Positions 2,481 through 63,080 of a DNA stretch of 64,000 nucleotides are shown here, piece by piece. Within the stretch, counting starts at the first letter, position 1, and each line of letters opens with the position of its first letter. A program made the translations under genes and the position numbers. The notes beneath the pieces are model-generated. The model had not been told where the DNA came from. It saw only the letters and a list, made by a program, of their open reading frames with translations, and ran no database searches. The stretch is from Blastocystis sp. Blastoise. Lineage: Eukaryota > Protista > Bigyra: Opalinata. The DNA is taken from NCBI GenBank assembly GCA_039096225.1, contig JBBPEB010000024.1, positions 1-64,000 of the forward strand. The letters are read 5' to 3'.

Positions 2481-3962
2481 ATGCAAAGTTGTGTATTAGG
2501 TATGCCAAGCCCTGGTACGTTTGGAATGAATAAAAAGGGTGTTGGTAAACAATTTCGAACGTATGAAGCACAGCCACTACATACACCAGATCAATATAAT
2601 CCATTAATATTTGAAGTAAATCCAAATTCATCATTTTCAGTTTCTAACTTAAAAAAGAAAGAAATAAATGATGGTAAAAAAGATACTTATATTAACCGTG
2701 AAAAAGAATTTGGTATAAATACCGGTGCTGGCGGTGCATTAATAAAAGCTAAACCCGTGGGAAAAGGTGTAATAAATAAAAGAAGATATGATGATGATAT
2801 TGATGATGAAACAGAAGCTCATGATATAAATGAACCAAGAGTAGTACCTACAAATTTTAGGGCAAGAAACCGTATGGGTCCAAAAGGTAAGGGATTAGCT
2901 TATAATTCCCGTGAATTAAGTAAATTACAAAATAACCAAGGGAGTGGTATATTTACAAAAGCAATAGGTCATACGATGAAAGCTATAGGTAAAGCAACTA
3001 AACATAAATCAGTAGAAAGTATAGGTAATATGTTAAGTGGAAATGGTATAGTACGTAATGTAGTAGGTAATGCTACAAAAGCTGTAGGTAGATTAGCTAA
3101 TAATCAAACAATACAAGATATTGGAGATAATATTTCAGGGAAACGTGACACAGTTATTAATACAACCACTAGAATTTCTAGACCAAATAATGAAAGAGTG
3201 GAATCCGAGAAACCTAATAAATCATTTGGTGGAACACTAATAGAAAATCATTTATCAGGTGTTATAACAGCAATGAATGAATGTAAAGGTGGTGCAATGA
3301 GTGATAAGGCTGTAACACGATTTTATAAAACAAAACATAAAAAAGGAAAATTAATTCCACCACAAATAGCATATGCTTTACAGTATATGGTAGATAACCG
3401 TAAAGGAATGCGTGCAGCTGGCTTAAAACCACTGAATATGTCTAAAATACGTAAATATATAGATTTTAGTGAATCTCCTGATGGTAATCATTTGCGGCTT
3501 AGGCGTGGTGGTGGTGTAGTTGATGAAATTATGGGTGTAGTAAAGAATTTACCAGATATATGGAATACAGTAAAGACAATTCCTTCTAAAATAATGTATT
3601 ATGCACAACCAGGTAAATTAAAAGAAGCATGGGATACAATGAAAGAAGAAAATGAAATTAAAAAACAAGAAATGGAAGTAGAAGGTGATTATCATAAAGA
3701 AGAATTAAAAGAAAGAAAGAAAAATTTAGAAAATTACCAGAAACAGAAAGCAGCAAATTCCAAGCAAATTGTTCAAAATGATAATTTAATTGCTGATAGT
3801 TCTGAAAAAACTTCAGATGCGCCTGAAATAGAAAATAAGCCAGATAAAGCTAGTGGTGTATTACGTGCTGCTGGTAGTAAACAAAAATTAAAAGGTAAAG
3901 CATTTTATGAATATATGCAACAATGTAAACGAAATAAACATGGCAATAAGTCAAAAAACTAA
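2481..3962 (+). CDS. Basic GxG-rich putative virion core protein (paralogue A)
   Basis: Lys/Arg/Gly-rich with repeated GAG/GKG/GSG/GGG; homologous to 24581-25699; ends in A_AAA_AAC-TAA. Confidence 0.6.
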   Translation: MQSCVLGMPSPGTFGMNKKGVGKQFRTYEAQPLHTPDQYNPLIFEVNPNSSFSVSNLKKKEINDGKKDTYINREKEFGINTGAGGALIKAKPVGKGVINKRRYDDDIDDETEAHDINEPRVVPTNFRARNRMGPKGKGLAYNSRELSKLQNNQGSGIFTKAIGHTMKAIGKATKHKSVESIGNMLSGNGIVRNVVGNATKAVGRLANNQTIQDIGDNISGKRDTVINTTTRISRPNNERVESEKPNKSFGGTLIENHLSGVITAMNECKGGAMSDKAVTRFYKTKHKKGKLIPPQIAYALQYMVDNRKGMRAAGLKPLNMSKIRKYIDFSESPDGNHLRLRRGGGVVDEIMGVVKNLPDIWNTVKTIPSKIMYYAQPGKLKEAWDTMKEENEIKKQEMEVEGDYHKEELKERKKNLENYQKQKAANSKQIVQNDNLIADSSEKTSDAPEIENKPDKASGVLRAAGSKQKLKGKAFYEYMQQCKRNKHGNKSKN

Positions 3963-4543
3963 GAGGAGGAGGTTTAGAAGAAAGTAAAAATGAGAAAATA
4001 ATACAAGAACACTTAGATTGTGATAATCCTATTATAAGTGATTCTGATAGAAAAGTAACTCCTAGATCTCCCGAAGATTTTTCTCAAAAAATTAGTCAAT
4101 ATTCATCAGTTCCCATGAATTTATTAAAACAAGTATATAACTACGGTTATTTAAATAAACCAACAAGTGCGGTGGCTTGTAGCCGTGCAAAGTCAACAAT
4201 GAATATGTTAAATCAGTCAAATTCAGAAGGTTTTAATTATTATAATAGTTATGAAGAATTTGAAAATAATATAGATAATGATAGAACAAAATATAATATG
4301 ATATTTCATCAAAGTAATTCAGATCCTAACTTTGGCCATTTTGAAGCTATTATCTATACTCCAAAGAAAATAGAACATTATAGTAGTCTTGGGAATAAAC
4401 CAAATTTTAGTAGAAATTTTGTAAATAGTCATAATATAGTATTCAGTCCAATTCAGCATCAAAGCACGTCTGAAAATGCTAATGGTTGTTTTTATTATTC
4501 TTTATTATATTTAATTAGTCACGGTAATGTAATGCCATGTTGA
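3953..4543 (+). CDS. Adenain/Ulp1-like maturation cysteine protease, probably reached by -1 frameshift
   Basis: FGHFEA (His), YSSLG, QHQS...NGCFYY (Gln/Cys); frame open from 3950 and conserved with element 2 about 50 aa upstream of first ATG (4115). Confidence 0.8.
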   Translation, partial: KKLRGGGLEESKNEKIIQEHLDCDNPIISDSDRKVTPRSPEDFSQKISQYSSVPMNLLKQVYNYGYLNKPTSAVACSRAKSTMNMLNQSNSEGFNYYNSYEEFENNIDNDRTKYNMIFHQSNSDPNFGHFEAIIYTPKKIEHYSSLGNKPNFSRNFVNSHNIVFSPIQHQSTSENANGCFYYSLLYLISHGNVMPC

Positions 4544-8339: not shown

Positions 8340-9929
8340 ATGAAATTATTAAGAATAAATAATACTATTCCTATTCAATCAGATGTTGATTTACTTAATG
8401 AATCATTTGCATTTGAATATGATTGGACTAATGTTGATAGTCGTTTTACTAATTTTAATCAAAGTTATTTAGAATTATCTATTATAGTAAATGATCAAGA
8501 GGATACGATACCAGAACATTTAACAAGTACTGAAGAAGATGAAAATTATTGGGGAAACTTTATTACTCCTATATATAAAAATGGTGCATCTTCTCAGTTA
8601 AAATTATGGGAAGTAACTCCTGGTAATGGTGTATGGAATGATAGTCTAGGTGTTACATATACATTTAATAATTTATTATTTTTTACAAAACAAAAATTAT
8701 TAAAATATTTATTAGATCAGTTAAAACAGTTAGTTAATATATATTCACTTATTGATAGTGCTGATATAGAAATGGTTTATGGTTTACCTGATGGTAGTGA
8801 ACGTGCTATAAAATATCATGAATCTTCATTATTTTCATCTAGAGCTAGAAAAATGATTTTATTAAAAGATATTCCAAAATATGAATTAGAAAAATCTATG
8901 TATGGTGAATCTTTATATTGTCCACAAAATGAATTAACATCATTTCGTTATTTAGTAAGACATAATAATGAATCATTAAAAATAGCTATACCATTATATC
9001 TTATAACTGGTTTAGGTGTTGATGGTGATTGTTTAAGTTTAGTAAAACATATGAAAATATTATTTCGTACAGCTCCTATTAAATCAATGCTTAAAAATGA
9101 TGATATTATATATACAAAAAAATTTATACCTTCAAAAACATCAGGTCAAATATATGATAAAGTAAATGAACAAACTATATGGAATACTTTAAATATAAGT
9201 TGGATAGATAAATTTATTTTAAAAGGTGCAAATTTATATTTAATGACATATGAAGATGTAACATTTAATCATGATGAATTATATAAAACAATACCTACCT
9301 ATATACAACTAGATTATAGATATGATCCTATTAAAAGAAATACATTTAATATTAATAGAGCATTACCATTTATACCAGAATATGTATTATTTTATTTTAC
9401 TGAAGGATGGGATATTAATAGAGTTAGTAATATTCCTACACCATATATATGGCCAACATATTTAAGTTGTTTAGTAGGTAATGTACAAATGTTTCCACAA
9501 ACTGAATTTCCTACTCAAAAATATTATAGTAATTTATTATTAAATGGTTGTGTTGGTGATACTCATGAATTATATCATGATCAATGTCCAAATAAATCAT
9601 TATATTCATTATGGGCAGATAATTCAAATCCTGAAACAAGTTTAGATTATGATCATTGGATGAAACATCCTATATATATTATACCTTGTAAAAGTTTAAT
9701 GAATGTTATTCCTAAACAAGGTGTAGAATTAAATTTTGATTGTGTTCTTGATGCTCATAATGTAAAATATATTTTTAAAGATGATTCTACATATTTTGAT
9801 GAATTAGGAAAATCATCTGATATGATTGTTAAACATGCTGGATATGAAAGACAAGTTAATGAAGAAATAAATGAAACTCATATGTATACAATACATATGG
9901 TTGCAGTTAGAAGTTCAAGAGATATTTAA
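8340..9929 (+). CDS. Putative double-jelly-roll major capsid protein, paralogue 1
   Basis: 529 aa, beta-rich; shares F..SYLEL, NIYS.ID, S.ARK, IPL.LITGL, F.P.Y, PIY..P with the next gene; in block with penton and ATPase. Confidence 0.6.
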   Translation: MKLLRINNTIPIQSDVDLLNESFAFEYDWTNVDSRFTNFNQSYLELSIIVNDQEDTIPEHLTSTEEDENYWGNFITPIYKNGASSQLKLWEVTPGNGVWNDSLGVTYTFNNLLFFTKQKLLKYLLDQLKQLVNIYSLIDSADIEMVYGLPDGSERAIKYHESSLFSSRARKMILLKDIPKYELEKSMYGESLYCPQNELTSFRYLVRHNNESLKIAIPLYLITGLGVDGDCLSLVKHMKILFRTAPIKSMLKNDDIIYTKKFIPSKTSGQIYDKVNEQTIWNTLNISWIDKFILKGANLYLMTYEDVTFNHDELYKTIPTYIQLDYRYDPIKRNTFNINRALPFIPEYVLFYFTEGWDINRVSNIPTPYIWPTYLSCLVGNVQMFPQTEFPTQKYYSNLLLNGCVGDTHELYHDQCPNKSLYSLWADNSNPETSLDYDHWMKHPIYIIPCKSLMNVIPKQGVELNFDCVLDAHNVKYIFKDDSTYFDELGKSSDMIVKHAGYERQVNEEINETHMYTIHMVAVRSSRDI

Positions 9930-10040
9930 TAATATATTTTATAATATATTTATTTTATTATTATTTATTTATTTTTTTTTTATTTAATAAATATATATTT
10001 AATTATATATATATTTTTTAATAAAATATTTAAATAAAAA

Positions 10041-11342
10041 ATGAATGGATTTCCACAAGATTTTTTACCTGCAGTAAATCATCAAACTATTACAGAAAAT
10101 TTTATAACTGTATCTGTAACAACTGATCAAAGTTTATTAGAAGCTCCATGTAATGTAGATTTTCGTTATAATACTGTTGATAATCCTTATATTGATTTTA
10201 GTAATTCTTATTTAGAATTATGGTTTGGTGTTAGAAAAAGTGCTACTAATAATACTGCTGTTACACAAAGTTCTAATATATATTCTATAGTTGATAAAGT
10301 TAATATTAATATGACTTATATTAGTCCAGTTGGAAAAGATGTAGCTATAAACTTTGCTGAACCATCATTAAATAGTAGTAAAGCTAGAAAATTTGTAGCA
10401 CTTAAAGAATTAAGTAAATTTGAATTAGATAAATCTATGTATACTCCATGTGAAAAATTATATGCAAAAAAAGATGAATTACATCTTATAGAAGCTATGA
10501 GACAAAATGCTACAACTTCAAAAGATGCATTTACAACTTATAAAATATATATTCCTTTAATGCTTATTACTGGTTTAGCTACATTTGATTGTGCTATTAA
10601 AATAAAATCAATGTCATTTCAATTTGTTTTAAATCATATTAAGAAAATAGCTACAAATTTAGATGGTATTTCAGCATTTGTTATTCAAAAAGCATTTATT
10701 AATTTTAGACATATGTATGATATTAACTGGGGTAATGATCCAAAAAATTTAATAAAATGTATACCTAATAATTGTGAAATTTGTTTTTTTACTGAACAAA
10801 TTGGTACTCAAACAATAACAAATTCAACTGGTAATACTGCATCATTATCTTTTACAGGAGATTTAGTAACCAGTAAAAATAGAAGTATTACATTTGTTCC
10901 TGATTATTGTTTAATGTATATTACAGATTCAGAAGATAGTATGATTCCTGTTAATACTCATTGTCCAACAACTATTAATTTTCAAATTGGTGGAAAGAAT
11001 ATGTTTACACAAACACAATTTCCTACAGCTACTAGATTTATACCTGATACATATACTTTAGAAATTATTCCTAATAGTATGTTATATAATGTATGGAGAT
11101 CACAATCAAATCCTATGTGTGTATTAGATGGTAATGAATGGTATAATCAACCTATATATTTATTTCCTATTGCTTCTGTTGTTGATGTTAATACAGAATC
11201 TGGTTGTGAAATTAATTATTATATACAAACATCTCCTTCTGGTATTAATAAATATCAGTTAACTAATGGTGCTTCTAAAACACAAAATATATTTATTAAT
11301 TTTATTTTTGTGAAATTTGTTAGAGATGGTTCTATGAATTAA
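10041..11342 (+). CDS. Putative double-jelly-roll major capsid protein, paralogue 2
   Basis: 433 aa; strongly similar to 34361-35671 (ends FIFVKF.R.G.MN). Confidence 0.65.
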   Translation: MNGFPQDFLPAVNHQTITENFITVSVTTDQSLLEAPCNVDFRYNTVDNPYIDFSNSYLELWFGVRKSATNNTAVTQSSNIYSIVDKVNINMTYISPVGKDVAINFAEPSLNSSKARKFVALKELSKFELDKSMYTPCEKLYAKKDELHLIEAMRQNATTSKDAFTTYKIYIPLMLITGLATFDCAIKIKSMSFQFVLNHIKKIATNLDGISAFVIQKAFINFRHMYDINWGNDPKNLIKCIPNNCEICFFTEQIGTQTITNSTGNTASLSFTGDLVTSKNRSITFVPDYCLMYITDSEDSMIPVNTHCPTTINFQIGGKNMFTQTQFPTATRFIPDTYTLEIIPNSMLYNVWRSQSNPMCVLDGNEWYNQPIYLFPIASVVDVNTESGCEINYYIQTSPSGINKYQLTNGASKTQNIFINFIFVKFVRDGSMN

Positions 11343-11392: not shown

Positions 11393-12047
11393 ATGAATTC
11401 AATATCTCATTGTAGTTTTATTGAAGGACCATTCTATACAGAACATATAGAACCTTCATTAAATTTAGTTGGAAAAAATATATCTCATATAACTACTGTA
11501 GTTAATGGTATAGCTTTAGAAAATGTAAAAGATTTTATTTTAACTGATATACAAAATAAAACATATCAATTTCCTGGTGGTAATTATGATTTAATGGATT
11601 TCATTAATAAATTATGCACTATTATACCTGAATTTGAATATAGTTCTTCTTTAAATTGTTTAAGTTTAATAGGTCATACATTCTTAAGGTCAACAGCTAC
11701 AAATGAATATTTTTTTAAAATATTAAATTTACCTCATGATGCTACTGGTAGTTCTACTAATATGAATAATTTTGTTTTTTTTAACTGATAATTATGTACT
11801 TAGTTCTACTATACGTAAAATATATTTATTACGAATATATAGTAGTATTATTAATAAAGATAATGATTTAATAAGTATTCCAATATATACTCAAGATGGA
11901 TATGATAATCATTGGTCATTAAGTAATATATCTATACCCTTAATAGATGGATTTTATAATGATATACAATGGGAAGTACGTGATCAAAATGATAATCCTG
12001 TTAATATATCACATAATAATATACAAATATTCTTTACATGTTCTTAA
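11393..12047 (+). CDS. Small penton/minor-capsid-like protein, split by 1-nt frameshift in T8 run at 11775-11782
   Basis: Two ORFs together match the single 122-aa ORF 35716-36084 (LR.Y...I..DNDLI.IP, YN.I.WE..DQ...P), plus an insertion containing PGGNY. Confidence 0.65.
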
Positions 12048-12169: not shown

Positions 12170-13216
12170 ATGGTTAATAAAAAGAATTTATTAGAAAATG
12201 ATAAAAGTGGTTGTGGTGTATTAACATTTAAATATGGTAAAACACATCATAAAACTTATGAATCAAAATTTATATTAATTATTGCTAGAACATTTAGTGG
12301 TAAATCATGGTTAACAGTTAATTTACTTGCTTCTATGGATTTAAATAATAAATTCCGTCAAGTAAGTTTATTTTGTCCTAAAGCTAGTTCTATGAATGAA
12401 TGTTATACATCATTACAAGATTTATTAGAACATGCTGAAATAAAATATCAATGGTATGATAGTATTGATGATAAATTTAAAAAAATAAAAAGTATTGATG
12501 ATCTTGTAACTACATATAAATTACCAGAACATAATTTTATTATTTTTGATGATATATATCCATTATCAAAAGAAACAAAGCTATTATTAATATCATTATT
12601 ATCTAAAGGTAGACATTATAAACAAAATGCTATTATATGTTTACAAAGCCATAAAGATATTACAAATCAAAGTGTATTAAGTCAAGTAAGTCATTTTTTT
12701 ATTAATAGTCAAGTTTTAAAACGTGATCCTGGTTTATTATTAAAAAAATTACAGTTAGATCCACCTAATTTAGAAGAAATATTATCTGATATGGAATTAA
12801 TAGAAGATAAACATCAATTTTTTATGTTAAAACAAGGTTGTGATGATTTAATACCTTGGACTAATCCTGATGTTAGTACAAAACAAAATGCTTATAAAAT
12901 GATGAAAAAACGTAAATGGACTGATATGGATGAAGCAAATGAAAAACGTGAAGAAGGAAATGGTGGTAATATTAATTCTGATAATAAGAAAAATAATAAT
13001 GTAAATAATGATTATCTTTCAAAAAGAATAAAAAAAATATTACCAAATGAAGAAGATATACAACTACGTGGTACAGAAATACCTGATAAAGATAAACCTA
13101 AAGATGATATTCTGCAAATATTACATGAACAAATACTACAAGATCAAAGATTAAAATATTTTAATCCATATCCTATGAAACGTAGATATCATGGTGCTCC
13201 ATATCAATATAATTAA
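12170..13216 (+). CDS. A32/FtsK-HerA-like genome packaging ATPase
   Basis: Walker A variant ARTFSGKS, Walker B FIIFDD, KGRHY arginine motif, ICLQS. Confidence 0.88.
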   Translation: MVNKKNLLENDKSGCGVLTFKYGKTHHKTYESKFILIIARTFSGKSWLTVNLLASMDLNNKFRQVSLFCPKASSMNECYTSLQDLLEHAEIKYQWYDSIDDKFKKIKSIDDLVTTYKLPEHNFIIFDDIYPLSKETKLLLISLLSKGRHYKQNAIICLQSHKDITNQSVLSQVSHFFINSQVLKRDPGLLLKKLQLDPPNLEEILSDMELIEDKHQFFMLKQGCDDLIPWTNPDVSTKQNAYKMMKKRKWTDMDEANEKREEGNGGNINSDNKKNNNVNNDYLSKRIKKILPNEEDIQLRGTEIPDKDKPKDDILQILHEQILQDQRLKYFNPYPMKRRYHGAPYQYN

Positions 13217-16802: not shown

Positions 16803-16851
16803 ATTCAAATATTTTATTTAATTCTGCCGCCTTAATTTGAATTTTTTGAAA

Positions 16852-17952
16852 ATGAACTGTACTATTCCTATGAAGAAAATGAAGAATATACATTATAATT
16901 CTATTTACTTTACGATTATCCATGTAGCTAAGTGGACTGATGAATGGAAAAATAAGCAATTGAGTAACTTTGAACAATATATTAATCCTATGCCTGAGAA
17001 AGTATTCATGCGAATGATTGGTACACCTACTATCTTCATTGATTATATACGTAATAAGTATAAACCTTCTATTAATACAATTAAAGCAATTGCCGAACTT
17101 ATTATGTTTATCTGTAAAGAAGATAAAACCTTAAAGAAGCGTATTATTGTTATTAAAAGCTGGGAAGCCATGTATTCTATTATTAATAGTATTTATACTG
17201 ATGTTCTTAAATCGAAGACTGATGCTGCTTTAAAGATGTTAAAAGATAACAATTGCTCTTTAGAAAATTTTAAAAAGATAAGAGATACTTGTTCTGTTGC
17301 TGATCCTCTACGTTTATTAATTGAGCTATATGTCTTGATGCCTCCTGCTCGTGCTGATTATGGTAACTTGATGATATATAAAGAAAAACCTGAAAAACCT
17401 GAATCTACTTCTTATGTCATTCCTACTCTAGATAGTACTATTGAAAATCCTTCTTATGAAATTCATGTTACTGAATATAAAACAGTAAAAACTTATGGTG
17501 AACGTATACTTAAGTGTTGTTCTGAATTTAATTCAGATTTGAATGAAATACTTACTTTGAATTCTAATAGTCGTTATTTATTCCATAAACCTGGTAAGAA
17601 TGAATGTTATTCTCCTAAACGCTTTTCTGAATTTGTTAAAAATATTATGAGACGTGTTGTTCCTGGAGGTATTACTATTAATAGTCTACGTAAACTCTAT
17701 TGCTCTACTCATGGTAATAACTTTGAAGAAATGAATCAATTGGCTTTAGATCTTGGACACTCTCTTAAAACTCATATTAATAACTATATGTCTATTACTA
17801 CTACTGATTTCTTAACTAATTTAACTAAGGAAAATCAACTTACTATTACTCCTGTTCCTGTTGATGATGAAGATATACCTATTAACGTTAATAATGATTC
17901 TTCTAATCTTGAAAACTGGTGTAAAAACTTAAGTCAATGTTGGACTGAATAA
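16852..17952 (+). CDS. Tyrosine recombinase A
   Basis: PPARADYG (R), YKT (K), NSLRKLY (R), LGHS (H), THINNY (Y). Confidence 0.88.
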   Translation: MNCTIPMKKMKNIHYNSIYFTIIHVAKWTDEWKNKQLSNFEQYINPMPEKVFMRMIGTPTIFIDYIRNKYKPSINTIKAIAELIMFICKEDKTLKKRIIVIKSWEAMYSIINSIYTDVLKSKTDAALKMLKDNNCSLENFKKIRDTCSVADPLRLLIELYVLMPPARADYGNLMIYKEKPEKPESTSYVIPTLDSTIENPSYEIHVTEYKTVKTYGERILKCCSEFNSDLNEILTLNSNSRYLFHKPGKNECYSPKRFSEFVKNIMRRVVPGGITINSLRKLYCSTHGNNFEEMNQLALDLGHSLKTHINNYMSITTTDFLTNLTKENQLTITPVPVDDEDIPINVNNDSSNLENWCKNLSQCWTE

Positions 17953-17975
17953 ATCTTAATTTATTTATATATACT

Positions 17976-17993
17976 TGTTTAGTTAACAAAACA
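17976..17993. terminator. Back-to-back TGTTTWGTT 3'-end motifs between convergent recombinase genes
   Basis: TGTTTAGTT then AACAAAACA; similar pairs between convergent genes at 5077/5106, 23392/23422, 28026/28065. Confidence 0.65.
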
Positions 17994-18021
17994 ATTTTTT
18001 ATTTTATTTATTTATAACAAC

Positions 18022-19821
18022 TTAATATTTTAATTTTAAAAATAGACCTGCACCATGATTATGTTTCTTAGGAATCTTTATACGTATTATATTTGGTTTT
18101 CGTATAATATTAGACTGACTACGTGTAGCATAAGGGTGTTCTTTACCATCTTCTACATAAGCATCATACTCACTACTTCTCTTACTCATATTATGTAATG
18201 CCTGACTTTCTCTAGGTATCATCACACCAGTACGAGTATCTTTATCGATTTGACGAACTAATGATTTACTCTTTATATACTTTATATATTTCTCACGATC
18301 TTTATCTTTCCAAATTACAGTCTTATCTGGACAACCCTCAGGTAACTGTTTTTCTAAATCTGTTCTATTTGGATATTCACCATTTTTAAATTTTGAATAT
18401 ATTTCTAATAAACCTTTTTTAAACTCTGGAAAATCATTTAATTTATTAAACGATATATTCTGACCTTCACTTAGATACTCTCCAAAATTCTCTTCACCAA
18501 ATACATCTGTATAATCTTCATGATATTCTAAAATACGTTCTAAAAATCTTCTATAGAGAAACATATCCTTCTCTTTATCTTCTAATAACCATTCTTTAAA
18601 TAGAGATCTACCATTTATCTGAATAGGTCTAAATTGTTTATCTATTTGTTTTTTCTTTTTATTTACACGTTCTAAGAAGGGTGTTATATATTGTTCTAAA
18701 TGAGTTGATGTAGCATGTAGCATCTTCTCTACACTTTTCTCAAATATTTCTTGACCACGTACTTCTAACTGAGGATCTCCACTCTCTGTTAATCTTAAAT
18801 ATATTTTATAATAACATTGAGCGAACAAATGACGTATTACATCACAACCTGTTATTAACTGTCTTTCTACTGCTTGACCATTTATCTCATCTTTATATGT
18901 AAATATACTACCTAAATGCATCTTTATATATTCTCCAAATTTATTTTCTCCAATAAATCCATGAGTTATTTCATTTATAAATAACTCATCTCTTGGATAT
19001 AATCTTAATGATCTTGCTAATACATTTAAAAATTCTTCAGATACTTCTTGTTTTGTTTTAACACGATTTATACCTAACTGGTATACATTCTTAGTATCAT
19101 TTACATTTATTGTTAAATCATTTAAATCTAAATAATTTGTAGACTTTTTAAGACTTGAAGGTACTTTAGAACTAAGAGTATATATCTTACAATCACCATA
19201 ATCATTACGACAACATAAACAATCATAAGTTAATACTAATAAATAACTATTAACATAAAATAAATCATTTGGATTCTTTAAATAATCATCTTTTGTTTTA
19301 TTTATTAAAGCATCCCACTGAGCCCCAGACTCAGTTATTCTATCGGTATATTCGTAATGTCTAGCGGTAGTAGCGTCATGCTGTAAAGCTACCCATAATG
19401 TCTTAAATTTCTGAATATTTGACCTTAAAAACACGGGAGAACGCAATATCTGCCTATCATCTGTTAATATATCTATATTTTCCATTATAAACTCTAACAT
19501 AGCCATATAGTTAGCTACAGAGGTCTTAGATAACCCTCCTGTTTGACCATGAGCTTTTGTCTCAGAATTTAATAAAATACTTGAAATATATTCAGGATAA
19601 CCTAATGCTTCTATACAGAAGTATGGAGCTAAATCAGGTTTATGAATACTTTCATCAATATTAATATTAGCAGCTACACGAAACTTAGAACATATAGTAC
19701 GCATATTACGCATATATACTTCATAAGTAGATTCACGTATACGTTTAAAATGATATAAATCACGAATACAGTTCATAAAAAAATCTTCACATTCTTCATC
19801 AGAATCCCCACGTTTATACAT
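18022..19821 (-). CDS. Tyrosine recombinase B (large, C-terminal extension)
   Basis: CRNDYG (R), DTKN (K), DVIRHLF (R), MLH (H), THLEQY (Y); orthologue of 28107-29942. Confidence 0.8.
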   Translation of the reverse strand: MYKRGDSDEECEDFFMNCIRDLYHFKRIRESTYEVYMRNMRTICSKFRVAANINIDESIHKPDLAPYFCIEALGYPEYISSILLNSETKAHGQTGGLSKTSVANYMAMLEFIMENIDILTDDRQILRSPVFLRSNIQKFKTLWVALQHDATTARHYEYTDRITESGAQWDALINKTKDDYLKNPNDLFYVNSYLLVLTYDCLCCRNDYGDCKIYTLSSKVPSSLKKSTNYLDLNDLTINVNDTKNVYQLGINRVKTKQEVSEEFLNVLARSLRLYPRDELFINEITHGFIGENKFGEYIKMHLGSIFTYKDEINGQAVERQLITGCDVIRHLFAQCYYKIYLRLTESGDPQLEVRGQEIFEKSVEKMLHATSTHLEQYITPFLERVNKKKKQIDKQFRPIQINGRSLFKEWLLEDKEKDMFLYRRFLERILEYHEDYTDVFGEENFGEYLSEGQNISFNKLNDFPEFKKGLLEIYSKFKNGEYPNRTDLEKQLPEGCPDKTVIWKDKDREKYIKYIKSKSLVRQIDKDTRTGVMIPRESQALHNMSKRSSEYDAYVEDGKEHPYATRSQSNIIRKPNIIRIKIPKKHNHGAGLFLKLKY

Positions 19822-19830
19822 AACTGAAAA

Positions 19831-20118
19831 TTACTTAAAACAATTAATATTTTTTGATATTTCTGACAAAGTCTTTATTAGTAAATCTAATTTTGTATTT
19901 ATTATTTCAATAGACTCTGTTTCATCTAATGTATTTTCATGTATATCCTTTGCTTGATCTTTTATATCAGTTAACATTTTTTCTATTTTATATTGAGACT
20001 CTCTTAAGTGATGTAATCTAGCTACTTTATAAGGAGAACAACAGTTACAGTTAAAATTAATATTTTCTATTATACAACTTACTAGTTCACTACTTTTAGA
20101 GAATATAGATATTATTTT
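19831..20118 (-). pseudogene. Coiled-coil ORF whose 5' end coincides with the element 2 terminus
   Basis: Frame open up to the TIR with no upstream ATG; the GTG start given lies inside the TIR. Confidence 0.4.
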
Positions 20119-20759
20119 ATTACTAATTCTTCGCACAAACCCAGGCGGCCAAGATATGGCCTACATCCCTATACTGCGAAGTTCGTAGAACTTCGCTAGC
20201 ATAGGGATGTTGCCCATATTTGTGTGGGTTTGTGCGAAGAATTACTAATTCTTATCATATAGAAAAATCAAGGAAATAGTGAAAAATACACTATAAAATA
20301 TGTTTTTCCCATAAATAACTATTTTAAACAATTTGATTGGTTAAATCAGTGATGATGCACCCTCTGTCATCCATTTTTACTTTTCTAACTTTTTATATAT
20401 TCTATTTACTTACTTACTACTTTATAAAAAAAATGAATAAGTAAGTAACCCCATATATACAAAAGTTTATTTTGACAAAAAAAAGAGCCAGTTCGGAATC
20501 ATTTGATTGGATGAATCTTGGAACACAATTTATCATCCAATAAAAATTATGTGTTCCAAAAAGATGAAATTTGATTGGTTAAATCAGTGATGACGCACCC
20601 TCTGTCATCCATTTTTACTTTTCTAACTTTTTGTATATTCTATTTACTTACTACTTTATAAAAAAAATGAATAAGTAAGTACGTAACCCCATATATACAA
20701 AAGTTTATTTTTGACCAAAAAAAGAGCCAGTTCGGAATCATTTGATTGGTTGAACGAAA
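20119..20759 (+). repeat. Left TIR of element 2: terminal ~120-bp hairpin plus two ~180-bp direct repeat copies (20331-20510, 20569-20750)
   Basis: Reverse complement of 44446-44854; multiple TTTGATTGG (CCAAT) boxes. Confidence 0.93.
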
Positions 20760-22428: not shown

Positions 22429-23364
22429 ATGAGAAATAAAAATTTTGATGCCATTAAGTTAGCAATAATCAAAAGTACCTATTGTGCTGGAAGTAAACGT
22501 AAATTTGCTATTATTATAGAAAAATATATTGAATATTTGCCTTGGGAAAAATTTAAGCAATTCTTGGAAAATCCTTATGCTTTTGCTGATGAATTGGTGA
22601 ATAAGAAGTTTATCAAGATTCATGAACTACTGAAATTATCTGAATTAATCTTATATTTAATAAAGGTAAAACACTTTGAATCTAATTTTTGTGAAGATAT
22701 TCATAATGATTGGTTAGAATTTAAAGATATTATTAAGAGTGCTTATGAACAATCCCTTCGTGAAAAGAAATCTGCTAGAATAGAAAATCTTCGAAAAGAA
22801 TATCCAAATATAGAATCATTGGAATGTAAACGTGATGAATTAGATAAAGATGATATACTTAGAATTATTATTGATTTATATATATTATGTCCTCCTCAAC
22901 GTGCTGATTATGGTATATGTTCTATTCAAACACCAGAAACTGTAACTAATAAAATGAGAAATTATATCATTTTTGATAAGAATAATGAAACTGCTGAAAT
23001 TCATCTGAAAGATTATAAGACTTCATATAAATATGAAGAAATTATAATTAAGAATAATGATAAGTTATATGAAGACATGAACTATATGTTAGAAAAAGAA
23101 CCTGGTAGAATGTTTATATTTGAAAAGACTCCTGGTAAACCATTTTGTGATGTTAAAGATTATGATAGATATATTAATAATCATTTACGTAGATTACATC
23201 CAGAATTAACTATTAATGGTTGTCGTTTCTATTATGCTACTACAAATTGTACTTCTTTTTCTTCTTTAAGAGATGATTCTGATAGATTAGCTCATACTAA
23301 AAGAACTCATATTGGCAGTTATGTATCTTTTACTCAAAGTGATTTGTATAGAAAATTAATTTAA
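22429..23364 (+). CDS. Tyrosine recombinase A (element 2)
   Basis: PPQRADYG, YKT, NGCRFYY, LAHT, THIGSY. Confidence 0.85.
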   Translation: MRNKNFDAIKLAIIKSTYCAGSKRKFAIIIEKYIEYLPWEKFKQFLENPYAFADELVNKKFIKIHELLKLSELILYLIKVKHFESNFCEDIHNDWLEFKDIIKSAYEQSLREKKSARIENLRKEYPNIESLECKRDELDKDDILRIIIDLYILCPPQRADYGICSIQTPETVTNKMRNYIIFDKNNETAEIHLKDYKTSYKYEEIIIKNNDKLYEDMNYMLEKEPGRMFIFEKTPGKPFCDVKDYDRYINNHLRRLHPELTINGCRFYYATTNCTSFSSLRDDSDRLAHTKRTHIGSYVSFTQSDLYRKLI

Positions 23365-24008: not shown

Positions 24009-24605
24009 TTATGTAGGTATGATGGTACCTAAACTAGTTAAATATAATAATGCATAATAGAAACATCCATTAGAGTTTGATGCAGTACTTTGGAATTGAA
24101 TAGGGTTGTATTGAGTATTATGTGTCTTAATAAATTGTGGAGAAAATTCTGGAGAATTCCCAAGACTGGAATAGAATTTCATATGTTCTGGACTTTCATA
24201 GATAACAGCTTCAAAATGACCGAAATTAGGGTCATCTTCAGATTGATGAAATAACATATTAAAGTTAGATTTTATATTATCAATATTATGTTCAAAATCA
24301 TTTAAATTATCCCAATATTTCCATGAACCTTTACATTGTGTATTCAGATTTTTCATTGTAGAATCTGCTATATCGCATGCAACAGGGTCACATGGATTAT
24401 TTAAATATCCATATTTATATATTTTTGAAATTAAGTTTCTATTAATTATACCAGATAATTGAGCCAATGATTTAGCTATACTATCCAGAGGTTTAGGCTG
24501 ACTAGATAATTGTTTATCAGAATAAATTTTTGTATTACAATTTAATTTATCTTGAATAATATCTTCATCAGGGCTCACTTTTAAACCTCTGGTTGGTAGT
24601 TTTTT
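24009..24605 (-). CDS. Maturation cysteine protease (element 2), probably reached by -1 frameshift
   Basis: FGHFEA, YSSLG, QFQS...NGCFYY; no ATG for conserved N-part; slippery heptamer 24605-24599. Confidence 0.8.
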   Translation of the reverse strand, partial: KKLPTRGLKVSPDEDIIQDKLNCNTKIYSDKQLSSQPKPLDSIAKSLAQLSGIINRNLISKIYKYGYLNNPCDPVACDIADSTMKNLNTQCKGSWKYWDNLNDFEHNIDNIKSNFNMLFHQSEDDPNFGHFEAVIYESPEHMKFYSSLGNSPEFSPQFIKTHNTQYNPIQFQSTASNSNGCFYYALLYLTSLGTIIPT

Positions 24606-25699
24606 TGTAATCCAGCTCCTTCACCACAACCATTTTGTTGACATTGTCGTTTAGCAGCTTTATATTTTTGCATATATTCATAAAAGGCACGACCACATAA
24701 TTTTCTTGGTTTTTTTAATCCAGAAGCATTATTAGGTTGCATTGCTTCTGCTAATGCTCTTTTCTTTGCTTCTATTTCTTGTTCTTGATAAACATTATCT
24801 ACATTATTATCTAATTTATTATTTTCATTGGCTTTTCTCCAAAATTCAGGTGTGAATATTTTACCAATTGCACGTGGAATTGCTGCAATATTATTTCCTA
24901 AATTCGTGACACCATCTTTTATTGCATTTGGATTAGTTGCTAATCCTTCAAATGCTTTTGAAGCCGCACCAATACCAGCTAACATTGTAAGGAATCCACC
25001 ACCTTCTTTCCAAAATTTTCCACCACGACGTACAGTACATCCGTTACCACTTGAATCACCTGAAAAATTAATATAAGAACACAATTGTCTTTTTGAGGGT
25101 CTTTTAATACCACATCCAACTTTATTTAACCCTTTACCACCTAAATTCATGGTACTTGCTATACTTCTTATAATTGAAGGTGGAATTAGCATTCCAGCAC
25201 GAATTCTATGTTTTGACCATTTCTTATAATCTTTCATAGCTTCTTGAGAATAGCCAGCTGCTTTTAATACACCTTGACCAATTGAATTATATAATTTTGA
25301 CATTTCTGCTTTATTAAAAGCTAATCCATTTCCATTTTTTGGTTCTAAAGCATCTGATTCTGAAATTACTTTTTTATTTGTAATTCCACGTCCATTTCTT
25401 TGAATACCTATTCTTGTAACTGGATTAGCAACAACCAATGAACCACCAGAATCACCATTATTATCACCAAACATTTTATCTCGATTAACATAATTATCAA
25501 CATTACCATTATTTACATTTTGTGTTTTTAATTGTCTTGTCTTTGCAACACTATTTTCAGGTATTGCTACCATTAATGGATTATGCCTTTCAGCATTATT
25601 TAATGGTTGTGTAATATAATTTCTATTTTCTTTTCCATGTCCTAAATGAATAATACCTTTATCACCTGGACTTGGATATTTTAATATAGTTTGTTCCAT
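24581..25699 (-). CDS. GxG-rich core protein paralogue A (element 2)
   Basis: ATG 25699 (MEQT..YPSPG); shares QPL...NPL, LIPP.I, G.AFYEYMQ with 2481 ORF. Confidence 0.65.
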   Translation of the reverse strand: MEQTILKYPSPGDKGIIHLGHGKENRNYITQPLNNAERHNPLMVAIPENSVAKTRQLKTQNVNNGNVDNYVNRDKMFGDNNGDSGGSLVVANPVTRIGIQRNGRGITNKKVISESDALEPKNGNGLAFNKAEMSKLYNSIGQGVLKAAGYSQEAMKDYKKWSKHRIRAGMLIPPSIIRSIASTMNLGGKGLNKVGCGIKRPSKRQLCSYINFSGDSSGNGCTVRRGGKFWKEGGGFLTMLAGIGAASKAFEGLATNPNAIKDGVTNLGNNIAAIPRAIGKIFTPEFWRKANENNKLDNNVDNVYQEQEIEAKKRALAEAMQPNNASGLKKPRKLCGRAFYEYMQKYKAAKRQCQQNGCGEGAGLQKNYQPEV

Positions 25700-28106: not shown

Positions 28107-29942
28107 TTAACAATAGAATTTACAATTAAAAAAATTATTTTTTTTGTGTGGTATTTTTGTTCTAAATAATCCTAAACCAATAGAACGGGTAAATAAATGT
28201 GTTCTTGGAACACAAATGCCACTACCAATATTTTCATTATTATCATTTTCATTTAAATATCCAGGATGTTCATTTCTATGAGGTCTTTTATCAGGTACAA
28301 GTGGTTCATGACGACATTCCCATTGGTTAATTGCGCTTGCAGCAAATGTTTCTCTGGTTGTTCGGACTTTATAACGTCTATTTATATCATATTGATTGGT
28401 TAATTCATGACATTTTGAAATATATTTTTCATAATATTGTTTATGTTGTAATGTAATATTTTCAATTTCCAATCCTTCTGATTCTTTAGGAACATCATTA
28501 TTTAAATCAATTAAATTTGGATATTTATTATTTTTTAAATCATCATAATATTGTTGAACTTTTTCTTTAAATTCATTTAAACCATTTAATGAAGAAATGA
28601 ATATTGTTGATGAACCAGGTTCTTTACCTAATAATTCAGGTCCAAATACATCTGTATAATCTTCATGATAAGTATCTAATCTTTGAATAAAACGGTCATA
28701 AATTAATTTATCTCTTTCTTTATCATCTTTATCCATCATCATAAATAATGAATCTTCAGTTAATGGAATTTGTCTTGTAATATTATCTAATACTTTTATA
28801 TGTTTTCCACCTTCTAATAAATATGGAGAAATATAATTATTCATATGTGTTGTTTGTGAATGAAGAATTTTTGAAATACTATTTACAAATACACGAATAG
28901 CTTTTCTATGTTCATCTGGATTTCCTGTACCTTCAAGTATTTTCATTTGCCTATAATAATGTTGTGCAAATAAATGACGAATCATATCACAACCAGTAAT
29001 TAATTGTTTTTCTTGATTATATTCATTTGTATAATGATATAATTCTCCTAAATGGTCTTTTATATAATCACCAAAATTACTATCATTAACTGGACTATCA
29101 AGTCTATCTCCGGAAGTAAATAAATAATTACGGGGACATAAACGTAATGATCTAGCTAAAACATTCATTAATTCTTCAGTTATATATTGTAATGTAGGAT
29201 ATAAGTTATAACCAATTTCAAATTTATTTTTAGTATCATTTACGTGTATAGTTAATGTATTTAAATCAATATAATTTGTACTTTTACGTAAAGTTAATGG
29301 GATTACATCACCTCTTCTATATATTCGACATATACCATAATCATTTCTACAACATAGACAATCATAACATAATACTAATAAATATGAATTAACATAAAAT
29401 AAATCATTTGGATGTTCAATATAATTTTGTTTACAACGTTGTATTAATTGACCCCAATCACATTTTGCACTAATAATTTTATTTGTATATTCTTTATGAC
29501 GAAGATTTGTTGCATCAACATTTAAAGAACCAAAATGTTGAGTCCACTTTTTAATATTTTTATTACTAAATACAGAATGTCTTAATATATCATTATCATC
29601 TGTACATAATTCAATATTTTTCATTATATAAGTAAACATTTGCATATAATTTGATATTGTTGTAACTGACAAACCTCCTTGTTGTCCACGTGCAGATGTA
29701 GGTAAATTCATTAATGTTTCTTGAAATGCTTCAGGATTTCCAAGAATTTCAATACATAAATATGTTTTGGGGTCTAAATTTCCTTCTTCAATACCTTGTT
29801 GCATTTTTACAGATATATTATGTATCCAATTTTTCCAATTAATACTAGTTGATTCTTGTATCTTTCTAAAATGTCTTAATTGATTAACACACATTACAAA
29901 AAAATCTTCACATTCTTGTGGAGAATCACCACGTGATTGCAT
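28107..29942 (-). CDS. Tyrosine recombinase B (element 2)
   Basis: CRNDYG, DTKN, DMIRHLF, ILH, THMNNY. Confidence 0.8.
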   Translation of the reverse strand: MQSRGDSPQECEDFFVMCVNQLRHFRKIQESTSINWKNWIHNISVKMQQGIEEGNLDPKTYLCIEILGNPEAFQETLMNLPTSARGQQGGLSVTTISNYMQMFTYIMKNIELCTDDNDILRHSVFSNKNIKKWTQHFGSLNVDATNLRHKEYTNKIISAKCDWGQLIQRCKQNYIEHPNDLFYVNSYLLVLCYDCLCCRNDYGICRIYRRGDVIPLTLRKSTNYIDLNTLTIHVNDTKNKFEIGYNLYPTLQYITEELMNVLARSLRLCPRNYLFTSGDRLDSPVNDSNFGDYIKDHLGELYHYTNEYNQEKQLITGCDMIRHLFAQHYYRQMKILEGTGNPDEHRKAIRVFVNSISKILHSQTTHMNNYISPYLLEGGKHIKVLDNITRQIPLTEDSLFMMMDKDDKERDKLIYDRFIQRLDTYHEDYTDVFGPELLGKEPGSSTIFISSLNGLNEFKEKVQQYYDDLKNNKYPNLIDLNNDVPKESEGLEIENITLQHKQYYEKYISKCHELTNQYDINRRYKVRTTRETFAASAINQWECRHEPLVPDKRPHRNEHPGYLNENDNNENIGSGICVPRTHLFTRSIGLGLFRTKIPHKKNNFFNCKFYC

Positions 29943-32771: not shown

Positions 32772-34299
32772 ATGTCATCAACAAGATTAGTTAGATATAC
32801 TGAACCTATAAATATTCAAAGTGGAGTTGACTTAATGAATAGTCAATATGCATTTCATTTTGAATGGACAAATACTGATAATAAATTTGTTGATTTTAGT
32901 CAATCTTATATTGATTTAGTTGTTCGTACTTCTTCTTATGTAGATCCTGATACAAGTCATAGAATTCCAGAATTTATCGAAGGTTGGTCAAGTTATTTAG
33001 GAACACAAAATAAATACAATAATGTTAAATGGTTAACTCCAGAAATGTTTATGCATGAACATATTGATGAAATGAATCAAAGAGCTAATATTTATTCTAT
33101 TATAGATAGTACAGAAATTGATATGAATTATGTTCATCCTTCTGGTAAAGAAAAAGCATTAAAAGTAATTGATAGTTGTATACATGCTAGTAGAGGTCGT
33201 AAAATGATTGCATTAAAAGATTTAGATAAAGATATTATTGAATAATCTATGTATAATGAATCTTTATTTGCTCCTGTAAAAGGATTAAATTCTTTACGTT
33301 TTATTCGAACACATCCAGACCAAGATATTCATATTGCTATTCCTTTGAATTTAATTTGTGCATTAGGTGCTGATAGAGATAGTGTTGTATTAGTACAACA
33401 TTTAAAAATGCTTTTTCGTACATCTCTTTTAACTTCATTGGTTGAAAATAATAAAAGTATTCCTTATAGATTTGCTGATGTAACAAAAACATCCGATGGA
33501 TGGATTCCTGCACCAACTAAATGGACATATTTTGATGTAAAATGGTTTAATGATTTTAAATTAATTAGTGCCTCTATGACATTAATGACTTATCAGAATA
33601 TATCATTTCAAAGACATGAATTATTTAAAAGTGTTCCTTCTTATTCTCAAGTAGATTATTTTCAAGAAAAAATTACTGATAGTGTTTCTATTATTAATAA
33701 ACCTGTTGCTTTTTTTCCCTGAATATATCTTATTTTGGTTTAGTGATGGATTTGATTTTAATATTACACCAAATATTGCTAGTCCCTCTATTTGGCCAGA
33801 ATATTTAAGTTGTATTTGTGGTAATATACAAATTTTCCCTCAAACTGAATTTCCTACAACTAAATATGGTTATGATATTACTAATAAAGGTCATTGTGAA
33901 GATGATAATGAACCTTTATCTATTTATAGACCTAATATAGCTTTATATAATATATGGGCAGATAATTCTGTTCTTAATACAGCTGTGAAATATAATGAAT
34001 GGATAAAACATCCAATTTATGTTATTCCTGTTAATAATTTAGCTAATGTTCGTAGTAATACTGGTATGGCATTAATTTTTGAATCAAAATTACGTGCAAA
34101 TAAACTTATTTTAAATCATATTGATGATAGTATTTTACCAGATTTTGACAGTTATAATCCTGGAATAACAGAACAAGGAAATGCAATAGTTCAAGTTAAT
34201 AGTCATCCTGGATTACAATATACTTATAATACATCAATTAATAAGAATAATCCTTATACTTTACACATGCTTTGTGTTCGTTCTGCTAGAGATATTTAA
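32772..34299 (+). pseudogene. Major capsid paralogue 1 (element 2), TAA at 33243-33245 and +1 frameshift near 33718
   Basis: Three ORF fragments collinear with 8340-9929 (ends VRS.RDI). Confidence 0.75.
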
Positions 34300-34360
34300 T
34301 TCTTAAAGAACATAAATATTTTTTTTTAATTCATCAAAATTATTTAAAAAAATAATAATA

Positions 34361-35671
34361 ATGAGTAAAATTCCTGCTGCTTTTAATCCTAGTAAAAATT
34401 ATCAAACTATTAAGAATACACAAACACCTATTAGTATAACAAATAATCAATCCTTAATGGACCAACCTTATGTTTTTGATTTTTGTTATAACAGTGTTGA
34501 TAGTCCATATATTGATTTTTCTAATAGTTATATTGAATTATGGCTTAATGTTAGAGCTGTATCCGCTAGTGAGCCACCTGCTACTATTCAAGAATGTAAC
34601 TTATATTCAATTATTGATAAATTAGCTATTACAATGACATATATAAGTCCTACTGGTGTAGATGTTGCTGTAAATTATACTGAAAATAGTATTGATAGTA
34701 GTAAAGCTAGAAAATTTATAGCTTTAAAAGAATTAAGTAAAGATGAAATTGATAGAAGTGTATATTGTGCTAGTGGTGAAGATTTATATGCTGTAAAAGA
34801 TAACGTAGAATCTATTAAATTTATGGAATACAGTTCAGGCTCATTAAAAGATACTGTTTATAAAGTAGCAATTCCATTTATGTTAATTAGTGGTTTAGGT
34901 ACATTTAATTGTGCTATTAAGGTAAAAACATTAAAAATACAAGTTACTACAAATTATTTAAGAAACATGTGTTCTAATATTGGTAGAATAACACAATTTA
35001 ATTTATCTCGTGCTTATATTACATTTAAACAAATTTATGATATTAATTGGAAAGGAAATCCTATGGCTCTTATGCGATGTATTCCTAATAATTGTCAATT
35101 ATGTACATTTAGTACTCCATGTTATGAATGGAGTTATACAAATAGTGGAACACAAAATGTCGTTTTAACTCCTTCTGGAACATTTATTAATAGTCGTAGT
35201 GTTAACTTTATTCCAGATTATTGTTTAATGTATTTTACTGATAAAGCAGGAAGTATGTTCCCTATAAATACAGAAATTCCTACAACTGTATCTTTTCAAA
35301 TTGGTGGTATTAATGTCACAGGTAGAGAAGATTATCCTCCACAATATAAAAAATTATTTAATTCAAAATCATCGACAAATAACGGTTGGACTGGATATTT
35401 AACTCCTAATATTGCTCTTTATAATGATTGGAGAGCAAACTGTCATGAACAATCTCCATTAATTGGTGAAAAATGGTATGAACAACCATTATATATATTC
35501 CCTATTTCCAGTTCAGTGGATGTAAATAATCAAGCTGGTGTTGAAGTTAATATTACATTACATAGTACACGTTCAACTGATGTTTCTACAGCTGCTGGAA
35601 AGACTTCATATTGGATACCTTATGTTAATTTTATTTTTGTGAAGTTTATTAGAAACGGTGCAATGAATTAA
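34361..35671 (+). CDS. Major capsid paralogue 2 (element 2), intact
   Basis: Orthologue of 10041-11342. Confidence 0.65.
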   Translation: MSKIPAAFNPSKNYQTIKNTQTPISITNNQSLMDQPYVFDFCYNSVDSPYIDFSNSYIELWLNVRAVSASEPPATIQECNLYSIIDKLAITMTYISPTGVDVAVNYTENSIDSSKARKFIALKELSKDEIDRSVYCASGEDLYAVKDNVESIKFMEYSSGSLKDTVYKVAIPFMLISGLGTFNCAIKVKTLKIQVTTNYLRNMCSNIGRITQFNLSRAYITFKQIYDINWKGNPMALMRCIPNNCQLCTFSTPCYEWSYTNSGTQNVVLTPSGTFINSRSVNFIPDYCLMYFTDKAGSMFPINTEIPTTVSFQIGGINVTGREDYPPQYKKLFNSKSSTNNGWTGYLTPNIALYNDWRANCHEQSPLIGEKWYEQPLYIFPISSSVDVNNQAGVEVNITLHSTRSTDVSTAAGKTSYWIPYVNFIFVKFIRNGAMN

Positions 35672-35715: not shown

Positions 35716-36084
35716 ATGGAAGCTGTATCTCATATGAGTTGTATAAATAGTAGTTTTTATCTTGAAAGATTTAATAATACGTTAAATTTAAATAATAAAA
35801 ATATTACTTATATAAATACTATGATTAATACACTAAAAATTAGAAGTAATAATGATGTAACAATGTTACGAGTATATTGTAATTTTATTGATCATGATAA
35901 TGATTTAATCATGATTCCTTTATATGCTGAACAAGGATTGGATAATATTTATTCATTAAGTAATATTTCTATTCCTTGTATAAATGGTCAATATAATGAA
36001 ATTTATTGGGAAATATATGACCAATTAAATCGTCCAATAACTCTTGATGAAGGAGCTTTAACTATTCATTTTACTGCATGTTAA
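35716..36084 (+). CDS. Minimal 122-aa penton/minor-capsid-like protein
   Basis: Orthologue of 11393-12047 without the insertion. Confidence 0.65.
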   Translation: MEAVSHMSCINSSFYLERFNNTLNLNNKNITYINTMINTLKIRSNNDVTMLRVYCNFIDHDNDLIMIPLYAEQGLDNIYSLSNISIPCINGQYNEIYWEIYDQLNRPITLDEGALTIHFTAC

Positions 36085-44445: not shown

Positions 44446-44854
44446 TTTCGTTCAACCAATCAAATGATTCCGAACTGGCTCTTTTTTTGGTCAAAAATAA
44501 ACTTTTGTATATATGGGGTTACGTACTTACTTATTCATTTTTTTTATAAAGTAGTAAGTAAGTAAATAGAATATATAAAAAGTTAGAAAAGTAAAAAAAG
44601 GATGACAGAGGGTGCGTCATCACTGATTTGACCAATCAAATTGTTTAAAATAGTTATTTATGGGAAAAACATATTTTATAGTGTATTTTTCACTATTTCC
44701 TTGATTTTTCTATATGATAAGAATTAGTAATTCTTCGCACAAACCCACACAAATATGGGCAACATCCCTATGCTAGCGAAGTTCTACGAACTTCGCTAGC
44801 ATAGGGATGTCGGCCATATCTTGGCCGCCTGGGTTTGTGCGAAGAATTAGTAAT
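44446..44854 (-). repeat. Right TIR of element 2 with terminal hairpin
   Basis: Inverted copy of left end; perfect stem ACATCCCTATGCTAGCGAAGTTC-tac-GAACTTCGCTAGCATAGGGATGT. Confidence 0.93.

Positions 44855-59207: not shown

Positions 59208-63080
<3,873 letters not shown>

Follow-up and report, generated by a model that had tools for sequence, protein, structure and literature searches.

A probable programmed -1 frameshift between a likely core protein and a predicted protease in two Polinton-like viruses of Blastocystis

The 64,000 nucleotides of Blastocystis sp. Blastoise analysed here (the window) carry two adjacent, related elements, each about 20-25 kb long, and both raise the same question. 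Each has an ORF that stops at or shortly after the heptamer A_AAA_AAC, and each has a second ORF, open from that heptamer in the -1 frame, that leads into a conserved product. How is the second ORF translated? An earlier note on this DNA argued that the same offset in two diverged copies points to a programmed frameshift rather than to decay or a homopolymer error. We believe this position is now stronger, since the shift falls at the same codon in diverged elements, a stem is predicted downstream of it, and relatives exist in which the two ORFs are fused. Programmed -1 ribosomal frameshifting that yields a core-protease fusion, in the manner of Gag-Pro, is the reading we prefer, with a probability of roughly 0.8.

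Element 1 (E1) occupies approximately positions 1 to 20110, with its left end beyond the window, and element 2 (E2) approximately positions 20113 to 44860. E2 has palindromic ends and terminal inverted repeats, with 203-nt arms that are 99% complementary and lie 24.2 kb apart. The gene at 10041-11342 probably encodes a double jelly-roll capsid protein (Atlas structure matches of TM 0.62-0.67 to Sputnik and NCLDV capsid clusters, from a model with pLDDT 0.57) and the one at 12170-13216 a packaging-type ATPase (phrog_2666, E 1.4e-9, plus weak P-loop Pfam matches that give no finer family). A weak match (phrog_216, E 0.001) suggests an integrase at 16837-17952, whose E2 homologue had no match. 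The elements also have a primase-helicase, tyrosine-recombinase-like genes and an adenine methyltransferase, and for a further Polinton-like virus criterion position alone offers candidates at 35716-36084 and 11393-12047. Among the 31 ORFs scanned neither PolB nor a retroviral integrase was seen, and none had a Pfam match to an aspartic protease, a reverse transcriptase or a retroviral Gag. Judged from their sequences, E1 and E2 are Polinton-like viruses. By the same measure they are independent elements, since their downstream ORFs are 47% identical and their upstream ORFs 25-33% identical over the aligned parts. Other genes are damaged: three in-frame stops and one frameshift lie in E2 and two frameshifts in E1, and these three frameshifts are all +1, occur in A or T runs and are each private to one element. 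Contigs from sequencing runs (X1) match parts of E2 at about 99%; among the listed pieces none spans the junction, and neither a joint nor an indel at the A run is listed, so they speak neither for nor against any reading of it.

The upstream ORF lies at 2481..3962 on the plus strand in E1 (493 aa) and at 24581..25699 on the minus strand in E2 (372 aa). The E1 heptamer (3953..3959, plus strand) is read in TCA AAA AAC TAA, with the zero-frame stop directly after it at 3960-3962. The E2 heptamer (24599..24605, minus strand; zero-frame codons xxA AAA AAC) is read in CAA AAA AAC TAC CAA CCA GAG GTT TAA, where the stop at 24583-24581 comes 5 codons past the heptamer. In both elements the heptamer begins at codon position 3 of the upstream ORF, so the phase is the same. 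The -1 frame then runs for 196 codons in E1 (3953..4543, plus strand) and 198 in E2 (24009..24605, minus strand), reading KKLRGGGLEESKNEKIIQEHLDC and KKLPTRGLKVSPDEDIIQDKLNC respectively, with 12 residues between KL and IIQ in each. The shared phase and this spacing had both been claimed earlier, and the sequence and the -1 translations bear them out. The same is true of the motif said to be common to the two sites: the pattern AAAAAACTA-N7-GAGGTTTARAAG matches the window only at 3953-3980 (+) and 24578-24605 (-). It was absent from 100 shuffles, a circular test because the pattern was derived from these same two sites.

AAAAAAC in any phase occurs 49 times in this AT-rich window (29 times on the plus strand, 20 on the minus). 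Across 23 element ORFs with 9,616 codon positions, A_AAA_AAC stands in the slippery phase only twice, at the E1 and E2 sites; any in-phase X_XXY_YYZ heptamer occupies 97 of the same positions. The C of the heptamer gives a rare codon in either frame, with AAC used for 7% of Asn and CTA for 6% of Leu residues. According to the available text of PMC5009743, A_AAA_AAC and G_GGU_UUU are among the shiftiest heptamers for eukaryotic ribosomes.

Both sites also share GAGGTTTA, which by itself proves little because GGT and TTA are the commonest codons for Gly (60%) and Leu (73%). The earlier note left open whether it is a stimulator or merely a trace of conserved Gly-Leu. Both probably contribute: the codons are common ones, yet in both elements GAGGTTTA is predicted to pair with a partner 95-105 nt downstream, forming the 5' arm of a long-range stem with a shared register. 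In E2 a 6-nt spacer (24593..24598, minus strand) separates the heptamer from the 5' arm (24582..24592), which forms 11 Watson-Crick pairs with the 3' arm at 24485..24495, its best duplex partner within 600 nt. In E1 the 5' arm (3968..3977, plus strand) forms 10 pairs, 2 of them G-U, with 4062..4071, after a spacer of 8 nt, or 6 nt if an extra G-C pair beyond a bulge is counted. The spacers of 6-8 nt thus fall within the usual 5-9 nt (PMC7618472, in the part available). The predicted stem encloses about 85 nt and lies on the same diagonal in both elements, the partner of its 5' arm is the best within 600 nt, and its pair probability is 0.96-1.0 in both across four window sizes. No helix shared by the aligned ORFs is longer than its 9-bp core; 11 others reach 7 bp. 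E1 and E2 differ at three stem positions, all of which still pair (one compensatory change, two one-sided), and within the loop a 6-nt deletion and a 6-nt insertion cancel, so the distance between the arms is kept.

When both sites were shuffled, the same diagonal arose in 0 of 1,500 trials and one within 6 nt in 1 of 1,500, whereas single-site shuffles produce a 9-bp helix at that spacer in 8-9% of cases at either site. Taken singly, the structure is strong in E2 (z = -5.41; P 0.0002-0.025 under synonymous recoding) and weak in E1, where it is not significant on its own (z = -1.31, with 23 of 200 shuffles equally good; P 0.04-0.085 under synonymous recoding, with 25% of recodings folding equally well overall). 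A covariation control gave 248 of 500, two sequences being too few for a covariation statistic. The pseudoknot that the earlier note had thought worth seeking downstream of the sites did not appear; the predicted long-range stem was found instead. H-type pseudoknots with a first stem spanning less than 50 nt were no better than in shuffles (27 of 40 and 17 of 40 shuffles did equally well), and no loop-to-downstream pairing common to E1 and E2 was found. Two other candidates were set aside: a local E2 hairpin (-8.6 kcal/mol), in which the same 5' arm takes part but to which nothing in E1 corresponds, and GAGG read as a Shine-Dalgarno sequence, since the host is eukaryotic.

The relatives of these ORFs are few. 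A protease profile found 5 matches in 1.84 billion proteins, core-alignment searches of proteins found 2 and 5, and a word-indexed protein search with the protease alone found none. Related loci did not appear as DNA in viral contigs, metagenome contigs, genome contigs or phages; the DNA-level comparison is therefore one of two sites, E1 and E2, and the relatives are compared as proteins. The most informative is a 617-aa metagenome protein, P0025, which is homologous to the E1 upstream protein from its N-terminus and continues in frame into the protease. Its cluster has 30 members, of which 15 are listed; 8 of these have the core motif and the protease in one frame, and the other listed members are 2 with a core tail plus protease and 5 fragments. 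Fusion is also seen in a second cluster, P0024 and P0004, where the junction NKQPTGGTQFSKDEDKIQ gives a gap-free alignment with KKLPTRGLKVSPDEDIIQ of E2 (NKQPTGG in P0024 against KKLPTRG in E2). At least 9 records thus have core motif and protease in one frame: P0024, P0025 and 7 listed cluster mates of P0025. Because fused relatives carry the junction in register, the two ORFs are, as far as these alignments go, one protein in nature. Right after the site, 7 of 29 residues are invariant in five lineages that include split and fused forms. In the core tree, which is unrooted and has E2 on a long branch, the two fused forms make up one clade (100/99) that is sister to one split lineage (98/95), and four more split lineages fall outside; the protease tree leaves most branches without resolution.

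Other clusters hold only one of the two parts. The P0003 cluster is protease only in 15 of 15 records. Core-only proteins end in LKAAKGF (7 of 7 in one cluster), in LKGLAGF (14 of the 15 listed out of 20 in another) or in KNSGEGIW (13 of 13 named copies in the P0040 lineage, for which no protease record was found). KN therefore stands at -8 in 13 of 13, and LK at -7 with a GF-stop end in the other two clusters, which places KN or LK 5-6 codons ahead of the stop, as in E2. The GF-stop end would be compatible with G_GGU_UUU, a compatibility read from protein ends only, and one core record and one protease record, for both of which the longest contig measures 23,715, have ends compatible, at the protein level, with a -1 overlap. 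We regard this agreement with heptamers as weak and post hoc, since compatible dipeptides already occupy 6-10% of positions in core proteins.

What are the two products? The E2 upstream protein is basic, Gly-rich and homologous to the N-terminal part of P0025. Composition and context suggest that the upstream protein is likely a virion core protein, although no Pfam family matched it above the cut-off and the Atlas gave just a lead of 0.85. Gly-x-Gly-hydrophobic/small motifs number 5 and 8 in the upstream proteins against 4 in 14 non-core ORFs, a motif that was chosen after viewing the sequences and whose frequency is partly accounted for by Gly content.

The -1 frame product is predicted to have a CE-clan cysteine-protease fold. 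The best 29 fold matches of a model of the relative P0011 (pLDDT 79.9) are nearly all CE-clan proteins, with Z from 8.1 to 4.8, and the low-confidence model of the window's own protease gives the same pattern. They include African swine fever virus pS273R (ASFV; Z 6.8, rmsd 3.8, 128 aligned), the adenovirus protease (Z 6.4, rmsd 3.3, 119 aligned) and poxvirus I7L (Z 5.8, rmsd 3.7, 124 aligned). The best viral fold match is 'Protease [MELD virus sp.]' (E 6e-5), and Sputnik V9 was matched in BFVD. A sequence search of solved structures and a Foldseek search of the PDB returned nothing significant. His (in GHFE), Cys (in NGC) and Gln are invariant in 5 aligned sequences, and His130 and Cys181 of the E2 protease are conserved. 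Judged against P0005 and against FDSLG, which we take to be the reference motif for the usual acidic position of the CE-clan triad, that position reads Ser (YSSLG). E1, E2 and the fused forms all have a Gly or Ala 11 residues ahead of the conserved Gln.

The most serious rival is splicing, in which the host spliceosome would remove an intron that spans the junction; the NCBI gene models assume such an intron. All 5 of those models bridge the ORFs by an intron, and three E2-type copies have the same 89-nt GT-AG intron (24498..24586 on the minus strand in E2), with 24% GC and a CAG end. Its ends coincide with the two stem arms, the part removed is the low-confidence N-terminus of the protease model, so that a spliced enzyme might still fold, and in the P0043 cluster every record is without the N-terminal part of the core, a hint of introns or breaks in these genes. 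Longer and variable introns are reported for Tortoise-clade Blastocystis in the available text of PMC10690189. Against this, the 89-nt intron would delete 29 codons, among them the 7 that are invariant in five lineages including the in-frame fusions, and every candidate E2 intron that spares those residues ends in RAG and not YAG. The E2 intron is impossible in E1, where the donor comes after a stop and the acceptor position has no AG, and two near-identical E1-type copies are modelled with different introns, one of them with a GAG acceptor. Splicing also leaves the rare-codon heptamer unexplained. The 89-nt intron codes for conserved residues and is likely an annotation artefact; erroneous introns and merged genes are described as common annotation errors in the part of the genome paper available (PMC10690189). 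We consider splicing unlikely.

The same fusion could also be made if RNA polymerase added one A in the A run, since one added base equals a -1 shift and E2 has a run of 7 A, E1 one of 6 A. This seems to us slightly less likely again than an intron. Polymerase slippage favours longer runs, and that of E1 is just 6 A. It is ribosomal slippage that is marked by a conserved C, by codon phase and by a stem at the distance of a ribosomal spacer.

The protease might also be a separate product, started at GTG 24578 or at an ATG at codon 83/84, or reached by reinitiation. All 15 P0003 records are called as stand-alone proteases, 5 of them begin exactly at the position of the Leu after the Gly, and the in-frame ATG at codon 83/84 is common to all lineages. 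However, that ATG would fall in the middle of a helix of the predicted model and within the region that aligns with the CE clan, and it comes only after the conserved IQ, CDN and YLN blocks. The -1 frame has no start codon common to both elements before the conserved N-terminus. The GTG, at codon 10 of the E2 -1 frame (24576..24578, minus strand), had been named as the start that would count against frameshifting if it proved functional. It finds no support from conservation, for E1 has GAA opposite it and no ATG, GTG, TTG or CTG before codon 55. The initial M of the P0003 records is itself compatible, at the protein level, with a -1 arrangement in which a TTG overlaps a TGA stop. A separately started protease is thus quite improbable.

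Decay or assembly error, by which an in-frame fusion gene lost one A from a homopolymer, draws on the in-frame fusions among relatives and on the other lesions of E1 and E2, but we give it as little credence as the separate start, because the other shifts are private and +1 while the junction shift is -1 at the same codon in two 47%-identical elements, copies on other contigs need the same bridge (all 5 NCBI models), five core lineages are split and one clade alone is fused, and the predicted stem is left unexplained.

We return then to programmed frameshifting. An in-phase heptamer 6-8 nt before a predicted stem makes it likely that a fraction of ribosomes slips into the protease frame. Ribosomes with Lys and Asn tRNAs on A_AAA_AAC would pause at the stem, and a fraction of them would slip by -1. 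Most would stop and release the core protein alone, at the 372 aa of E2 or the 493 aa of E1. A minority would make a core-protease fusion of 563 aa (E2) or 687 aa (E1), the fused relatives having 617 aa. Packaged by way of its core part, the fusion would bring protease into the assembling capsid in a small, fixed amount. In the least certain step, the protease may free itself at the linker Gly and cut the core at Gly-x-Gly during maturation; the Gly or Ala before the conserved Gln is, speculatively, a possible self-release site.

With less assurance than we attach to the frameshift itself, we lean towards a wider evolutionary reading. A Polinton-like virus lineage of gut protists would have convergently evolved retrovirus-style Gag-Pro expression, with a frameshift and a long-range stem setting the ratio of core to protease. 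The frameshifted state would be widespread, and one clade would have fixed the fusion in frame. If this is right, the morphogenesis module of a eukaryotic double-jelly-roll DNA virus has here its first well-supported programmed frameshift, and the retroviral way of packaging protease in a small, fixed amount has been reached by a DNA virus. It would indicate the upstream basic protein as the core substrate and account for some Polinton-like virus proteases reported missing or broken. Gene finders would then be masking such sites, in host genomes by inventing introns and in metagenomes by calling false starts.

The mechanism is a known one; the setting, the partner proteins and the stimulator appear to be new as far as the literature searched goes. 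That literature was mainly open and consisted of main texts, and in it no core-protease frameshift is reported for Polinton-like viruses or virophages. Frameshifting is known in few eukaryotic DNA viruses (PMC8310308, available part). The available text of the papers on Polinton-like virus gene sets (PMC11161782, PMC12721341) does not mention a programmed frameshift, and the main text of the Blastocystis genome paper, in the part available, gives intron sizes and annotation pitfalls and no viral elements (PMC10690189).

The nearest precedent is one speculative sentence on adintoviruses. 'Hexain', a set of Hexon-Adenain -1 fusions, likewise belongs to a Polinton-like group and likewise has its protease proposed to arise by a -1 shift. 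It is hypothetical, however, rests on KnotInFrame predictions, as does a hypothetical Penton shift of the same viruses, and has the major capsid protein as its partner; the available section offers no conservation, stem covariation or in-frame fused relatives (PMC11071296). The MELD viruses, which include a Blastocystis hominis MELD virus, resemble E1 and E2 in being elements of about 25 kb with terminal inverted repeats, a double-jelly-roll capsid, a packaging ATPase and a vUlp1-type protease. The Blastocystis MELD virus has PolB and a retroviral integrase, which were not seen among the 31 ORFs scanned, and E1 and E2 have a primase-helicase and tyrosine-recombinase-like genes instead; no core-protease fusion or recoding is described for it in the text available (PMC8502044).

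Adenain, pS273R, I7L and Sputnik V9, whose CE-clan fold the predicted protease matches, are encoded as stand-alone genes. The protease of E1 and E2 differs from these virion maturation proteases in being, on our reading, the C-terminal part of a polyprotein.

It is with the retroviruses that the likeness in working is closest. A_AAA_AAC is the gag-pro site of MMTV, BLV and HTLV, and its spacer of 6-8 nt is the same there as in E1 and E2 (PMC3835772, in the part available). The gag-pro genes of beta- and deltaretroviruses likewise place a structural protein upstream and a maturation protease in the -1 frame (PMC8310308, available part). The differences are just as plain. E1 and E2 are double-jelly-roll dsDNA viruses of a protist, their protease is predicted to be a CE-clan cysteine enzyme where the retroviral one is aspartic, and their stimulator would be a long-range stem enclosing about 85 nt, not a compact pseudoknot or a short hairpin. 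We therefore describe the arrangement, by analogy, as one that would work as gag-pro does, without being a member of that family and with no common ancestry implied.

The genome has been invaded many times by the virus family that includes both Polinton-like elements and the lineage of P0040, a relative represented by core protein only. This follows from the 13 annotated copies of that third core lineage (P0040, P0041 and P0044-P0054), all of which are named as the same organism. No protease of this lineage was found in the protein databases searched. The first ~120 core residues are absent from all records of the P0043 cluster, another core-only group, among those listed, and the start of P0024, an in-frame core-protease fusion, is out of homology. 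There may be a second break, either an intron or a shift, early in the core gene of these last two lineages.

In both elements the capsid-like genes form a tandem pair of paralogues (8340-11342 in element 1, 32772-35671 in element 2) that are 25-30% identical; the double jelly-roll call is based on one capsid-like gene only. There are also two tyrosine-recombinase-like genes per element (16837-19821; 22429-23364; 28107-29942), one with a weak integrase match and the other assigned by eye. Among these genes, the longer have a Gly-x-Gly-hydrophobic tail that resembles the motifs of the core protein.

Element 2 is bounded by imperfect palindromes of ~140 nt (20113-20260 and 44715-44860), flanked by further repeats, and these long termini could form hairpin ends. 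Because the termini are palindromic and no PolB was seen among the 31 ORFs scanned, the data suggest hairpin-primed replication or recombinase-resolved ends for element 2 rather than protein priming. The copy of element 2 in the window looks decayed. Lesions private to one element or the other comprise three +1 frameshifts, each within a run of A or T (about 6920 and 11780 in element 1, 33715 in element 2), and three in-frame stops in element 2 (about 31812, 33243 and 36396). At 60365-62989 and 50525-52787 the host part contains transposase-like ORFs, judged by eye and with no Pfam match above the cut-off, and long AAT/ATT microsatellites.

The motif TGTTTTG(T/A)T lies just 3' of element genes on the plus strand (1545, 5077, 12115, 15050, 21296, 21851, 22383) and the minus strand (17993, 23430, 26595, 28073). 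It occurs 17 times in the elements versus 5 times in the 19-kb host part, and none of its hits in the window falls between core and protease. It resembles the Blastocystis downstream element, TGTTTGTT.
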